Shown here: positions 2,218-48,284 of the stretch, piece by piece
How the letters are laid out: each line of letters begins with the position of its first letter
Position numbering within the stretch: position 1 is the stretch's first letter
DNA from: Minisyncoccia bacterium
Lineage (GTDB): Bacteria; Patescibacteriota; Minisyncoccia; Phycocordibacterales; UBA918
DNA: 64,000 nt
Direction: 5' to 3'
Assembly: GCA_046598345.1 (NCBI GenBank)
Contig: JBKJIT010000003.1
Coordinates: 156,549 to 220,548, forward strand
Made by a program: the position numbers and the translations under genes
The notes under the pieces: model-generated
The model's database searches: none
What the model saw: the letters and a program-made list of their open reading frames with translations, nothing else
Told to the model about the DNA's origin: nothing

Positions 2218-2219
2218 TG

Positions 2220-2292
2220 TCCGCCCGCTTGGACTTGAACCAAGGACCACCGAGGTATAAGCTCGGCGCTCTACCAACTGAGCTACAGGCGG
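2220..2292 (-). tRNA. tRNA-Ile with anticodon UAU (decodes AUA)
   Basis: the reverse complement folds as a canonical 73-nt cloverleaf: acceptor CCGCCTG/CGGGCGG with U6-G67, D-arm GCTC-AGTTGGTA-GAGC, anticodon stem CCGAG/CTCGG, loop CTTATAC (U33, A37), T-arm CTTGG-TTCAAGT-CCAAG, discriminator A; CCA is not encoded. Confidence 0.75.
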
Positions 2293-34042: not shown

Positions 34043-34140
34043 GTCTAAATCATAACAAAAACAGACCCTTTAGAGAAAGTCTGTTTTTGAGCCGGGATAC
34101 AGTTATTCATATGGTCACGAGTCACTCAGTAAAATGCTTA

Positions 34141-34302
34141 CATTTGTACTAAGTGCTTTCGACCCCACCTCACGTGCCCCCGGCATCGTTCCGGTTCGCA
34201 TTTAGACACTGACACAAAGCAGTTTGTGTCATAGAACAAAACACCATCATTTCATGATGGTGTTTTGTTCTATCTAACTGCGCGGCGGACGGGACTCGAA
34301 AC
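34141..34302. repeat. family-B repeat segment plus a 19-bp-arm hairpin (34231-34273) plus an isolated, minus-oriented copy of the last 28 nt of tRNA-Asp (34274-34302)
   Basis: TTGTACTAAGTGCTTTCGACCCCACCTCAC and ATCGTTCCGGTTCG match the 1975-2055 repeat; taactgcgcggcggacgggactcgaaac is the reverse complement of GTTTCGAGTCCCGTCCGCCGCGCAGTTA; hairpin gacacaaagcagtttgtgtc (34211-34230) recurs inverted at 35500-35521. Confidence 0.6.
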
Positions 34303-34352: not shown

Positions 34353-35009
34353 ATGCCCATACAAAAGATTGTACAATCAGATTTTTTTAAAACATGGAGT
34401 CATGGCATGGCGTACATTTTGGGATTTTTTGCAGCAGACGGAAGTATAACGAAGACAAAAAGAAATACTCATTTTATTTCGTTTACTTCTGCCGATAGAG
34501 AGATTTTATCCGCCATACAAAGATTGATGAAGTCTAATCATAAATTATCCGAACGAAAATCTAAGACCGGTTGTGTCTATCGTTTCCAAATTGGTAGCAA
34601 AGTCATTTTTAATGACCTCATTGCACTTGGTTTTAGTAAACGCAAATCAACTCGTATGCTCATGCCTAATATCCCCAATCAATACATTCCAGATTTCATT
34701 CGGGGTTATTTTGATGGTGATGGAAATGTTTGGATTGGTTATATGAATAAACACAGAGAAAGGCAGACAAAAGTAATCCAAGTCGCATTTACAAGCGGAA
34801 GTAAAAAATTTCTTGAAACGCTTTTATCTCTCTTGCGAGAGAGAGGGATACGAGGTGGCTCACTTTACTCATCAAAGACAAAGAATTTTTCTCGACTTTC
34901 CTTAAGTACTTTAGATGCTTTGAAACTGAAGGGAATCATGTATAATGGGCAACCGAAGCTCTATTTGAAAAGAAAAAAGCTTCGCTTTGATACGTATAAA
35001 TCAATGTAA
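34353..35009 (+). CDS. LAGLIDADG homing endonuclease, double-motif type, free-standing immediately upstream of an intron-containing tRNA
   Basis: AYILGFFAADGSI and FIRGYFDGDGNV, two LAGLIDADG motifs about 100 aa apart; the stop codon lies 2 nt before the tRNA 5' end. Confidence 0.85.
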   Translation: MPIQKIVQSDFFKTWSHGMAYILGFFAADGSITKTKRNTHFISFTSADREILSAIQRLMKSNHKLSERKSKTGCVYRFQIGSKVIFNDLIALGFSKRKSTRMLMPNIPNQYIPDFIRGYFDGDGNVWIGYMNKHRERQTKVIQVAFTSGSKKFLETLLSLLRERGIRGGSLYSSKTKNFSRLSLSTLDALKLKGIMYNGQPKLYLKRKKLRFDTYKSM

Positions 35010-35011
35010 CT

Positions 35012-35307
35012 GCGGTGGTAGCTCAACTGGTTAGAGCACCCGCCTGTAGACGTGCAGCTTTCTTTCCGAAAGGGGGATTGAAACTTTCCGGGATAACGGT
35101 GAAGGCTAAGTTTGCCATTTGGCGAATATGCGAATACCGTGGGAACCTTATACACAAAAACACATAGTATAAGGGCGCCGTAGAGACTAGATACCGGGAT
35201 ATCTAAAAGTTTGAAAAAACTCATGATAAAGATATAGTCCACGCCACTATGAAAATAGTGGAAGCAGTGCACGCGGGAGGTTGCGGGTTCGAGTCCCGTC
35301 CGCCGCG
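35012..35307 (+). tRNA. tRNA-Asp(GUC) interrupted by a 222-nt group I intron between anticodon positions 35 and 36
   Basis: exons 35012..35047 and 35270..35307 join to GCGGTGGTAGCTCAACTGGTTAGAGCACCCGCCTGTCACGCGGGAGGTTGCGGGTTCGAGTCCCGTCCGCCGCG plus discriminator G. This matches E. coli tRNA-Asp closely (loop CTGTCAC, G73, C38, G10); 5' exon ends in U, intron ends in G. Confidence 0.8.
35048..35269 (+). mobile_element. group I intron (small, ORF-less) in tRNA-Asp
   Basis: internal guide GTGCAG at intron nt 5-10: CAG pairs the exon CUG(U.G) to form P1 with a U.G wobble at the splice site, and GTG pairs the 3' exon CAC (P10). An R-like element tagagactag lies at 35181-35190 and an exact S element aagatatagtcc at 35229-35240; a P9-like hairpin ccactat-gaaa-atagtgg precedes the terminal G at 35269. 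Confidence 0.75.
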
Positions 35308-35342
35308 CAGTTAGTAAAAGTCGGCCTTGTGCCGATTTTTTC

Positions 35343-35452
35343 GTGCGCGTCAGGGACTCGAAGAGGTTGCCAGCTATTTGTGACCGAAGGAAACAAATAG
35401 CGACAACCTGTACTGAACATGTAATGTTCGAGTCCCGTCCGCCGCGCAGTTA
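35343..35452 (+). repeat. family-A element L1: an inverted tRNA-Gln-like 3' piece, then GTTGCCAG plus hairpin plus core CGACAACCTGTACTGAACATGTAATGTTCGAGTCCC, ending in an exact copy of the tRNA-Asp 3' end (35426-35452)
   Basis: 35366-35436 aligns with 46480-46540 across a roughly 70-nt homologous span; the last 27 nt equal tRNA-Asp positions 53-73 plus CAGTTA. Confidence 0.6.
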
Positions 35453-35457
35453 AATAA

Positions 35458-35493
35458 ACCTAAAAACCACAGTCTAAGGACTGTGGTTTTTAG
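35458..35493 (+). terminator. terminator hairpin cctaaaaaccacagtc-ctta-gactgtggtttttagg
   Basis: perfect 16-bp stem; followed by hairpin gaacacaaactgctttgtgttc (35500-35521). Confidence 0.6.
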
Positions 35494-35654
35494 GTTTAGA
35501 ACACAAACTGCTTTGTGTTCGTATCTAACTGTGAGCTAGAGTCATGTTTTTGCTACACAAAATGCAAAATAGACGAGGCCGGGTCGAGAGTGCTTAAGAG
35601 CAAAGCGAATTAGCAACTCCTGACCAGTACCCAGCGAAAGGGATTTGAAAAGAC

Positions 35655-46329: not shown

Positions 46330-46549
46330 CATTGCCAGTTCGTCTAATGGTGGCCAGAAATTAATGAGCGCTGCGATTATAATTTCTGAGTCCGTCTGAT
46401 TTTCTTCCTCACAGAAGAAAATCAGACGTTTGGGAGGTCCTGAGTATTGGGGCTGAAATGATATGGGGTATTATTTCAGGACGTTGCCAGATATTTATAA
46501 AAAATATCGACAACGTGTACTGATCATGTAATGATCGAGTCCCTTACCA
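46330..46549 (+). repeat. split pseudo-copy of tRNA-Gln: the first 21 nt (46330-46351) and a 3' piece inside family-A element L2 (46480-46549, core CGACAACGTGTACTGATCATGTAATGATCGAGTCCC)
   Basis: cattgccagttcgtctaatggt occurs at 46329 and 46560; 46480-46540 aligns with 35366-35436. Confidence 0.55.
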
Positions 46550-46562
46550 GAACAAAAAATAT

Positions 46563-46633
46563 TGCCAGTTCGTCTAATGGTAGGACACATGCCTCTGGAG
46601 CATGTTATTGGGGTTCGAGTCCCTGACTGGCAG
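46563..46633 (+). tRNA. tRNA-Gln(CUG)
   Basis: acceptor TGCCAGT/ACTGGCA (U1-A72), D-arm GTCT-AATGGTA-GGAC, anticodon stem CATGC/GCATG, loop CTCTGGA, T-arm TGGGG-TTCGAGT-CCCTG (two G.U pairs), discriminator G. Confidence 0.7.
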
Positions 46634-46647
46634 CTAATAGAAAATCG

Positions 46648-47518: not shown

Positions 47519-48097
47519 ATGGAATCAATACCGTCTCATGAAGAAGTGAAGGTTGTAATTGAACGTGCACGTCCGGAGGATGCAGAAGAAATCCAAACTG
47601 TTTTCTATAAAACCTGGCTCGCAACATATCCTAATGAGGTGTCAGGTGTAACTGTGGATGACGTACATGAATATTACAGGGACAAATTAACTCCAGAAGG
47701 AATCAAAAAATCCCAAAGAAAGATTGAAGAGGATAGTCGAATGGAAAACCTAAGAGTTTTTGTTGCAAAAATCAATGAAAAAGTTGCAGGTGTCTGTATA
47801 GCAAGAATTCTTGAGGACAAGAATCAGTTGAAAGCAATATACGTCTTACCTGAATTTCAAGGAAAGGGAATTGGTTCCAAATTATGGAATCAGGTACTTA
47901 CGTTCATTGATCAGACAAAAGACACGACAGTTGAAGTTGTGACCTATAACAGTAATGCAATCGAGTTTTATAAACGACTAGGTTTTGAAGATACTGGTAG
48001 GAGGTGGACTGATGAAAAATTTCGAATGAAAAGTGGTGCAACGTTTCCAGAAATGGAGATGAAAATTAATGGTTTAGGGTCACTAGAAAAGTTCTAA
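47519..48097 (+). CDS. GNAT-family N-acetyltransferase
   Basis: acetyl-CoA binding motif QLKAIYVLPEFQGKGIGSKLW. Confidence 0.8.
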   Translation: MESIPSHEEVKVVIERARPEDAEEIQTVFYKTWLATYPNEVSGVTVDDVHEYYRDKLTPEGIKKSQRKIEEDSRMENLRVFVAKINEKVAGVCIARILEDKNQLKAIYVLPEFQGKGIGSKLWNQVLTFIDQTKDTTVEVVTYNSNAIEFYKRLGFEDTGRRWTDEKFRMKSGATFPEMEMKINGLGSLEKF

Positions 48098-48284
48098 CAT
48101 TACACCCCAGGGTGCCTTCTTTACCTCGCATGTTCAGTTCAGGTTGTCGCTTTTTCATAAAAACGCTGGCAACCTCCTGAATACATATCCCATATGCATT
48201 CAGCTTCGTCCCATACAGCCAGCTCACTAAGTTGTGGTCGCGGGACACTTGCATAATTGTTATGGTAAAATTTAAATATTCAAA

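Follow-up and report, generated by a model that had tools for sequence, protein, structure and literature searches.

How a small folded sequence comes to stand beside tRNA genes, and to end in a copy of part of the neighbouring tRNA, is the question raised by a repeat element in the genome of a Minisyncoccia bacterium (Patescibacteria). The stretch that was analyzed, referred to here as the window, comprises 64,000 nucleotides (nt) of contig JBKJIT010000003.1 (assembly GCA_046598345.1, positions 156,549 to 220,548). An earlier note on this DNA had described a conserved element of roughly 70 nt at a tRNA-Asp and a tRNA-Gln gene, and had proposed a miniature integrative element, or the att remnant of one, targeting tRNA 3' ends. 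Patescibacteria genomes are among the smallest bacterial ones, and yet in many of them dozens of copies of the element stand around the tRNA genes. In this study, the sequence in question was found to be a short repeat element with a strong fold that appears not to have been described before; it is restricted to Patescibacteria and is joined to tRNA-type sequence at a single step, G53|U54, where the T-loop starts (GG|UUCGA). The interpretation that we prefer, and that we regard as about evenly balanced between right and wrong, is that of a multi-copy, Patescibacteria-specific structured insertion element landing at tRNA position 53/54.

The conserved core occurs three times in the window, at 35352-35438 (+), 46469-46545 (+) and 48086-48187 (-). 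A covariance model built from 91 copies (R1) returns exactly three significant matches on the window, with 91.8, 63.3 and 51.3 bits, the next match having E≈0.2. The two copies reported previously are both where they had been placed: the 36-nt core pattern matches at 35401-35436 and 46508-46543 only, where shuffled sequences are expected to give no match, and BLAST aligns 35395-35436 with 46502-46543 at 90% identity over 42 nt. The exact 27-nt copy of the tRNA-Asp 3' end that closes the Asp locus was likewise recovered, as was the copy of the tRNA-Gln 5' end upstream at the Gln locus (21 nt, exact), and the Gln locus is indeed a disrupted tRNA-Gln copy beside an intact one, the relic also keeping tRNA positions ~37-53. 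The features of the three copies and their tRNA genes are as follows, where S1, S2 and S3 are the helices of the element and H0' is a hairpin preceding its core.

35345-35452, + strand: copy 1, of the tRNA-downstream type; R1 91.8 bits, E=5e-25.
35345-35349 pairing with 35444-35448, + strand: outer helix of copy 1, in the minimum-energy fold.
35353-35360, + strand: 5' strand of S1 in copy 1, antisense to the T-loop.
35364-35409, + strand: S2 of copy 1, with AGGUUG/CAACCU stem, CCA/GA internal loop and distal hairpin.
35410-35415, + strand: linker GUACUG of copy 1.
35416-35428, + strand: S3 of copy 1, with GUA loop.
35429-35436, + strand: 3' strand of S1 in copy 1.
35426-35452, + strand: block of copy 1 identical to the tRNA-Asp 3' end; 27-nt exact repeat of 35287-35313.
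35012-35307, + strand: tRNA-Asp(GUC), intact, its 3' part duplicated at the end of copy 1.
35012-35047, 35048-35269 and 35270-35307, + strand: tRNA-Asp exon 1, group I intron (222 nt) and exon 2.
35320-35341, + strand: terminator-like hairpin and T-run between tRNA-Asp and the element, from reading of the sequence.
46331-46553, + strand: copy 2, of the tRNA-upstream type, joined to a tRNA-Gln 5' relic; R1 63.3 bits.
46331-46351, + strand: tRNA-Gln positions 1-20 in copy 2; 21-nt exact repeat of 46561-46581.
46352-46435, + strand: hairpin-rich insertion of ~85 nt in the tRNA-Gln relic of copy 2.
46436-46452, + strand: tRNA-Gln-like positions ~37-53 in copy 2 (GGTCCTGAGTATTGGGG).
46453-46479, + strand: hairpin H0' of copy 2 (UGGGG loop).
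46483-46535 and 46536-46553, + strand: core and T-loop-like tail of copy 2.
46563-46634, + strand: tRNA-Gln(CUG), intact, directly 3' of copy 2; ARAGORN and Rfam.
48086-48203, - strand: copy 3, with no adjoining tRNA; R1 51.3 bits, E=6e-13, and pattern match.
48203-48177 and 48173-48096, - strand: H0' hairpin (UGGGA loop) and core of copy 3.
48128-48104, - strand: extra insertion of ~25 nt in the S3 loop of copy 3.

The minimum-energy fold of copy 1 (-48.4 kcal/mol, z=-5.8) shows a three-way junction with the outer helix, and that of copy 2 is similarly stable (z=-5.4). The string GTTGCCAG, with which the element had been thought to start and which had been taken for the 5' acceptor string of tRNA-Gln, lies within the S2 stem and internal loop; the true start of copy 1 is further upstream and includes the T-loop-antisense segment 35353-35360 and the outer helix. 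The likeness of GTTGCCAG to tRNA-Gln is coincidental, since the string is kept beside every type of tRNA, including where tRNA-Gln itself starts with TGGGGGA, TGGCGGA or TGCCGGA. A Gln-like 3' end of copy 2 also proved to be an overstatement, as 10 T-loop-like nt alone match. Only two of the seven tRNA genes in the window carry the element; the flank upstream of copy 3 retains a faint tRNA-Gln-like remnant (CTGTATGGGA).

To place these copies within a family, a collection with one genome per species was scanned with the pattern GTTGCCAG-N(10-40)-CGACAAC-NTGNACTGA. This gave 95 stretches, 93 of which come from 65 genomes of Patescibacteria (Paceibacteria, Kaiserbacteria, Nomurabacteria and similarly labelled bins), the remaining two being evident chance matches. 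At least 120 stretches of a metagenome collection hold the core, and scanned viral contigs gave 0 matches, so that a phage origin was rejected. In the 95 loci (8-kb pieces, numbered with the prefix L), R1 finds 148 matches, ~45 of them outside the fixed pattern. Many 8-kb loci hold two to four copies, and up to four loci occur per genome. The family is clearly larger than the two window copies and is associated with tRNA genes elsewhere, the outcome opposite to the one that the earlier note had named as telling against its proposal. No family in Rfam 15 matches the element at gathering or permissive thresholds in searches of the window, of each copy and of eight element-rich loci. A literature search for the element turned up no description, only papers on tRNA group I introns.

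The fold of the element is conserved throughout this family. The core of ~60-75 nt consists of the long hairpin S2, with the conserved base stem AGGUUG/CAACCU, the CCA/GA internal loop and a variable distal part; the linker GUACUG; and the 5-bp hairpin S3 with a GUA triloop. A segment just upstream (e.g. GGGACUCG) pairs with T-loop-like sequence just downstream (CGAGUCCC) to form S1, which usually closes the core, so that the aligned copies form a three-way junction; a hairpin with a YGGRR loop, H0, often lies upstream of the core. In the alignment of 91 sequences, 93.3% of cells form pairs, compared with 78.8% after shuffling and 36-48% when the partners are slid, and 310 double-sided changes are present where ~80 are expected; 0 of 500 shuffles attain the observed values. 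All helices co-vary, and an independent count agrees. The invariant blocks formed part of the search pattern, and it is the matches found by the model only that give a test of their co-variation: in these, the S2 base stem also co-varies (ACCUUG/CAAGGU, CCCGAUUG/CAAUUGGG), while GUACUG and the GUA-looped S3 are kept.

The conserved fold is that of a single strand. This strand is most likely RNA read in the direction of the tRNA, with single-stranded DNA as the alternative; the assignment is drawn mainly from strict co-orientation with the tRNA and from the terminator-like hairpins that follow the tail. About half of the copies carry, in the distal part of S2, a conserved UGA–short hairpin–GAA(A) motif (e.g. 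GUGACCGAAGGAAAC, AUGAGCGAAGCGAAAU; 35381-35394 in the window), which resembles tandem sheared G·A or kink-turn-type motifs and is a candidate protein-binding site.

The association with tRNA genes takes the same form in both collections. For most copies in the genome set, a tRNA gene of nearly any identity is found on the same strand, 50-100 nt 5' of the copy (50-170 nt when the family is taken as a whole), and an exact block of at least 20 nt starting at T54 or G53 is common to the copy and the upstream tRNA in 37 of 61 cases. The metagenome set replicates this result: among the matches listed, 55 of the 87 copies away from contig edges lie within 200 nt of a same-strand tRNA, with 23 anticodons represented, and 31 of these 55 have a shared block, the length of which peaks at 21-22 nt. 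An upstream tRNA on the opposite strand was found for 0 copies in the two sets. The previous observation that the 3' end of the element copies the tRNA beside it thus extends to ~60% of more than 200 copies and at least 25 anticodons in two independent collections. Compared with its own tRNA, the tail has an identity of 0.76-0.97 over positions 54-74, dropping to background at position 75 and beyond; tails perfect over positions 54-73 were counted in 61 of 103 distinct copies. Among imperfect copies, the T-loop part that forms S1 is kept (0.84) and the acceptor part decays (0.53).

Three contexts can be distinguished. In the first, (a), exemplified by copy 1, an intact tRNA is followed by a terminator-like hairpin, the element and a 21-nt copy of tRNA positions 54-74; the element-borne T-loop-antisense segment and this tail form the co-varying S1 that closes the three-way junction. 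A spacer hairpin equivalent to that at 35320-35341 is present in most tRNA-downstream copies, as seen from the layout at other loci. The second context, (b), is a mirror class in which a copy of tRNA positions 1-53 precedes the element and the intact tRNA follows ~25-55 nt beyond it. Its members are L008, L011, L022, L050, L072 and the Gln locus of the window, and copy 2 has the same layout as the other five: the 5' part ends at G53 and is followed by a long hairpin whose loop is of the UGGGA type, then by the core, then by a local hairpin in which S1 is formed anew. The tRNA-downstream and mirror classes therefore share the same step, position 53/54. The suggestion that tRNA 3' ends are the target must be amended accordingly: the junction is internal to the tRNA, and the mirror class carries positions 1-53. 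Some partial tRNA copies also hold hairpins in the D-loop region, namely the ~85-nt insertion in the tRNA-Gln relic of the window and an H0-like hairpin in the tRNA-Arg of L011. A 7/7 strand resembling the 5' side of the acceptor stem occurs in 19% of copies and in 9% of controls, and is clear in one subfamily.

In the third context, (c), the tRNA link is absent and the core, after UGAG and the H0 hairpin, stands between GGG and UCGAGA of another structured sequence, termed module X. The module is a long, conserved hairpin (GGUCGAGAACACUUAGUA ... ACUUAGUGAYUCGUGACC) with a CAUGU hairpin ahead of it. Several genomes have it 3' of tRNA loci, its pairs include compensatory ones, and an Rfam search gave no match. 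Two unoccupied copies are present in the window.

35541-35632, + strand: module X with the unoccupied site GGG|UCGAGA, from the comparison of filled and empty sites and a consensus fold with compensatory pairs.
~34098-34195, - strand: inverted second copy of module X, unoccupied.

The site is filled in L051, L086, L024, L089 and L008, with no duplication at the filled sites, and empty in L020 (1998-2100), L095 (6335-6430), L022 (2240-2395, - strand) and at both window positions. Module X thus provides a direct comparison of filled and empty sites.

Further observations bear on how copies spread and age. Identical 53-nt cores are found beside different tRNAs and in different genomes. The nearest neighbours of a copy are enriched both at the same tRNA in another genome (16% versus 4% expected) and at another tRNA in the same genome (6% versus 1% expected). 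Tandem arrays of identical units occur, for example in L023, L025, L048, L056 and L063, and comparison of L025 with L075 and L092 shows a second unit upstream of an older unit with a diverged tail; such arrays are expected from unequal crossing-over between 21-nt direct repeats. Copies grade from perfect to decayed. Among relatives at the same tRNA (tRNA-Met in L038, L047 and L057; tRNA-Asp in L020, L037, L077 and L086), H0, S2 and S3 are kept by compensatory changes and the spacer sequence is replaced. Other small sequences are nested in the S3 loop, as in window copy 3 and L020. A second insert family (…ACTGCATTCG – hairpin – CTCATTTGT…) occupies the S3 GUA loop in L020 (1898-1975), L072, L043 and L027, and the ~25-nt insertion in window copy 3 (48104-48128, - strand) differs from it. 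Secondary insertions seem to concentrate in the S3 loop.

These features can be accommodated if the T-loop sequence, which is nearly universal, serves as the site at which the element lands or into which it is copied. Insertion into a T-loop would destroy the tRNA, so the surviving tRNA-linked copies would be only those that left a partial copy beside an intact gene. The partial duplication of the tRNA might arise from a long staggered break, from Campbell-type recombination or from template switching anchored on T-loop homology. Once formed, the tRNA-derived 21-nt direct repeats could drive unequal crossing-over and with it persistence, amplification into tandem arrays and clean loss, and the machinery that moves the element would act in trans rather than being encoded beside it. 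The fold is probably under selection at individual loci, as suggested by the tRNA-Met and tRNA-Asp relatives with their compensatory changes.

Several points weigh against an insertion element. The duplication of part of the tRNA is a step that we infer and did not observe. No transposase, integrase, reverse transcriptase, TnpB or HUH gene is present among the 20 open reading frames (ORFs) of the window annotated with Pfam, which encode FtsH, RecG, pilus proteins, LigA, GatA, RF2, FtsEX, CTP synthase and similar proteins; clustering of 747 ORFs from the 95 loci gave housekeeping synteny only, with no mobility gene recurring near the copies. Copies inside one genome are mostly divergent and near-identical ones are found at the same tRNA across related genomes; most copies are thus of old date and passed on vertically, a pattern that a host function explains just as well. 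Wobble pairs prefer the tRNA-sense strand weakly (57 G.U versus 35 A.C). Finally, a single sample holds the organism of the window, and strain polymorphism for presence or absence at a tRNA locus was unobtainable. Within the 8-kb genome pieces, no related autonomous element or cognate transposase (RAYT, TnpA) was found.

The main rival, which we consider possible but clearly the less likely account, is that the element is a tRNA-linked non-coding RNA useful to the host, in which the tail and the antisense arm must match the adjoining tRNA and the partial tRNA is functional rather than a scar. Its proposed roles would lie in tRNA 3' processing, in stability or quality control, or in drawing off tRNA-binding factors as a decoy or sponge. 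Such an RNA would be expected to show what is seen in the core, which is invariant over many genera with stems that change by compensation, and in the same-tRNA relatives, in which structure is kept and spacers diverge. The flanking terminator-like hairpins would suit a discrete transcription unit, and the element persists in very small genomes. The identity of 61 of 103 tails to the cognate tRNA, and the co-variation with the tRNA of S1 and, in a subset, of an acceptor-like outer helix, also argue in its favour. However, where tails are imperfect, the acceptor part is lost towards background (0.53) and the S1 part alone is retained (0.84), and the acceptor-5'-like strand is only weakly enriched (19% versus 9%). 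Two classes either lack a tRNA tail or have the 5' part instead, the T-loop is held in a helix so that the element is no tRNA mimic and receives no tRNA-like call from ARAGORN or Rfam, and five of the seven window tRNAs do without it. Furthermore, the filled and empty sites, the identical cores at different tRNAs and the decayed copies resemble insertion dynamics. An insertion element and a functional RNA are compatible readings and not mutually exclusive.

A more far-reaching reading, which at present seems rather unlikely, is that the core is a catalytic or self-sufficient mobile RNA that recognizes the T-loop via S1 and breaks and joins tRNA-type molecules at G53|U54. If this were true, the genome would have preserved the products of the two half-reactions as [element]-[54-74] and [1-53]-[element], and the element would represent either a new class of ribozyme-based mobile element or an RNA for exchange or repair of tRNA 3' halves, with no need for an element-encoded protein.

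After integration by a tRNA-targeting tyrosine integrase, the 3' segment of the tRNA is present as a direct repeat. The copies could be att remnants of prophages or islands that were integrated in the T-loop and later deleted, leaving attR and a piece of the arm, and an intact upstream tRNA with a 3' direct repeat starting in the T-loop is indeed the classic signature of integration. We hold this explanation to be very improbable and already largely refuted. The cognate integrase that the earlier note had proposed to look for is absent from the window and no integrase recurs in the 95 loci; more than 200 copies include 0 full-length elements and none of kilobase scale, the insert always being small, ~110-170 nt by one measure and ~124-240 nt by another. 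The compensatory changes in three helices, in keeping with conservation of a single-strand fold, are unlike duplex protein-binding arms. In addition, the mirror class and the duplication-free X class do not fit, and the core is absent from viral contigs. Of the original proposal, an insertion-like family tied to tRNA genes stands, whereas the integrase type does not.

The guide RNA of a trans-encoded RNA-guided protein, comparable to a TnpB omega-RNA or a crRNA, would combine a scaffold with a guide of ~21 nt matching the tRNA gene. We give this little credence, even though the boundary between scaffold and variable part is sharp, the ~21-nt tail is of constant length and followed by a terminator, scaffold-plus-tail units form tandem arrays and the tail equals the flanking target, as in IS200/IS605 omega-RNAs. 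No effector ORF for TnpB, IscB or Cas is present in the window and none recurs in the loci; two classes are tail-less, the tail pairs with the antisense arm of the element itself and its acceptor part decays in older copies.

A new class of spliceable intron in the tRNA T-loop and module X, whether self-splicing or enzyme-spliced, would account for the precise position within structured RNA genes, the interruption of X without duplication and the strong structure in a phylum rich in tRNA group I introns (PMC13011429), but has next to no chance of being correct. None of ~150 copies was found to interrupt the sole gene for a tRNA, and tRNA-linked copies are invariably accompanied by an intact tRNA that keeps its 3' end; no group I or II model or Rfam ribozyme matches, and the boundary nucleotides fit the rules of neither group. 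A conventional spliced tRNA intron is thus unsupported. Candidate interrupted tRNAs were also sought with ~72,000 constructs spliced in silico, which gave tRNAs only via the intact upstream gene. A group I intron identity was rejected on a permissive Rfam search of the three copies and eight loci, which gave no RF00028 match on the element and recovered the genuine intron of tRNA-Asp.

Further identities were tried and set aside. A retrocopy of mature tRNA was rejected because CCA follows position 73 in three of 61 tails and in five of 61 genes, both having mostly CAA; a mini-tRNA with a full acceptor stem was rejected because the acceptor-like strand is a subset feature. For a tRNA-like structure or tmRNA mimic, the T-loop nucleotides are paired in S1 and S3, and neither ARAGORN nor Rfam gives a tRNA or tmRNA call; with the T-loop locked in helices, the element is not a usual tRNA mimic. 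Comparison by eye showed no agreement between the junction strands of the element and the core of the hammerhead. The element is small, multi-copy, non-coding and dispersed in the manner of miniature inverted-repeat transposable elements (MITEs) and REP sequences, and has neither the short duplication of the target site nor the terminal inverted repeats, carried by the element, that mark these. Filled X sites show no duplication, the repeat at tRNAs is the 21-nt tRNA block, and the sequence of the inverted arm S1 follows the tRNA at each locus instead of a consensus of the family.

The surroundings of copy 1 contain further repeated sequences.

35454-35524, + strand: double-hairpin terminator-like module, 3' of the tail of copy 1.
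~34200-34270, - strand: homologous double-hairpin module, found also in L022 and L052 (2835-2910).
34274-34300, - strand: third tRNA-Asp 3' block (positions 54-76 and trailer).

The two double-hairpin modules have an identical second hairpin (ACACAAACUGCUUUGUGU) and a first hairpin of shared shape and entirely different sequence; matches of the module to Rfam psRNA14 are below threshold (47.6 bits for 35454-35524, and 42.6 bits; cut-off 60 bits). The third tRNA-Asp block starts at T54, is an exact match over 26-27 nt to 35288-35314 and 35427-35452, and abuts a LAGLIDADG cassette. Together, the tRNA-Asp 54-76 block, the double-hairpin module and module X make up an inverted repeat of ~200 nt, 34098-34300 (-) and 35426-35632 (+), which encloses the LAGLIDADG gene, tRNA-Asp and the element; inversion, or repair following endonuclease cleavage, are candidate origins of this repeat.

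The free-standing LAGLIDADG homing-endonuclease gene, 34353-35009 (+), ends 2 nt before the 5' end of tRNA-Asp. The same arrangement is found in L020 (protein identity 52%), with a remnant in L077, and it is only at tRNA-Asp, in these three cases, that LAGLIDADG genes accompany the element. The group I intron of tRNA-Asp, itself without an endonuclease gene, lies at anticodon-loop position 35/36 (RF00028, 51.4 bits, match 35052-35261) and may cooperate with the separate LAGLIDADG gene. ARAGORN missed this tRNA because the intron splits it; aligned with the tRNA-Asp of L037, which lacks the intron, its exons are 100% and 94% identical. An intron at position 35/36 of tRNA-Asp is known from Patescibacteria, the type having been described for tRNA-Asp and tRNA-Asn (PMC13011429). 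Elsewhere in the window, a tRNA-Ile with anticodon UAU is encoded at 2219-2292 (-); L083 also encodes one, with the element attached.

Exact-protein look-ups showed SRR31159418 to be the only public run that holds the organism of the window. Contigs L096-L098, assembled from this run (Logan), end exactly at the repeated tRNA blocks, at window positions ~35406-35424 and ~46561, so that the elements fragment short-read assemblies beside tRNA genes. More generally, the element explains partial tRNA genes, tandem repeats of tRNA ends and assembly breaks beside tRNAs in Patescibacteria, and R1 provides a means of annotating it. If it is a mobile element, it has a previously unreported target (one step of the universal T-loop sequence), no mobility gene beside it and a mode of insertion that leaves an essential gene unharmed. 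A functional RNA would instead be a widespread companion of tRNA loci, so far unrecognized, across a major phylum of uncultivated bacteria.

Comparison with known systems places the element as follows. It shares with tRNA-targeting integrative elements an intact tRNA and a tRNA 3' repeat that lies beyond the insert and starts in the T-arm, but its insert is ~110-170 nt long and integrase-less and conserved as a folded single strand, and it has a mirror class with the 5' part 1-53, a duplication-free class and no parent element that was seen. Like the tRNA group I introns of Patescibacteria (PMC13011429), it is a structured RNA at a fixed position of the same kind of host gene in the same phylum; unlike them, it is found at 53/54 rather than in the anticodon loop, is a third of the size, is RF00028-negative and is never found within a tRNA that lacks an intact second copy. 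Archaeal split and permuted tRNAs and non-canonical introns offer a parallel in tRNA halves that lie apart beside complementary leader-like sequence, T-loop junctions being possible among them; here, however, the lineage is bacterial, the intact tRNA is always present, bulge-helix-bulge evidence is lacking and the element-linked halves do not complement each other as parts of a working split gene. TnpB omega-RNA and crRNA guides likewise have a conserved scaffold followed by a variable segment of ~21 nt equal to the flanking target, whereas in the element this segment is paired internally and is absent in some classes, and no effector gene was found.

The element also resembles MITEs, REP/REPIN sequences, Correia elements and above all the Rickettsia palindromic elements, known from reduced genomes, which are likewise multi-copy, ~100-150 nt, stably folded and non-coding, occur in small genomes and sometimes within RNA genes, and have mobility machinery that is unknown or acts in trans. 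The differences are that the present element has a single T-loop target step and no short target-site duplication, that its junction and loop nucleotides are invariant across genera, and that the target tRNA itself supplies the sequence of S1, its inverted 'terminal repeat'. We rate it as belonging with the small non-autonomous structured insertion elements, among which it is unusual in its single target step inside tRNA genes, its two mirror-image tRNA chimeras and its strong RNA-type constraint.

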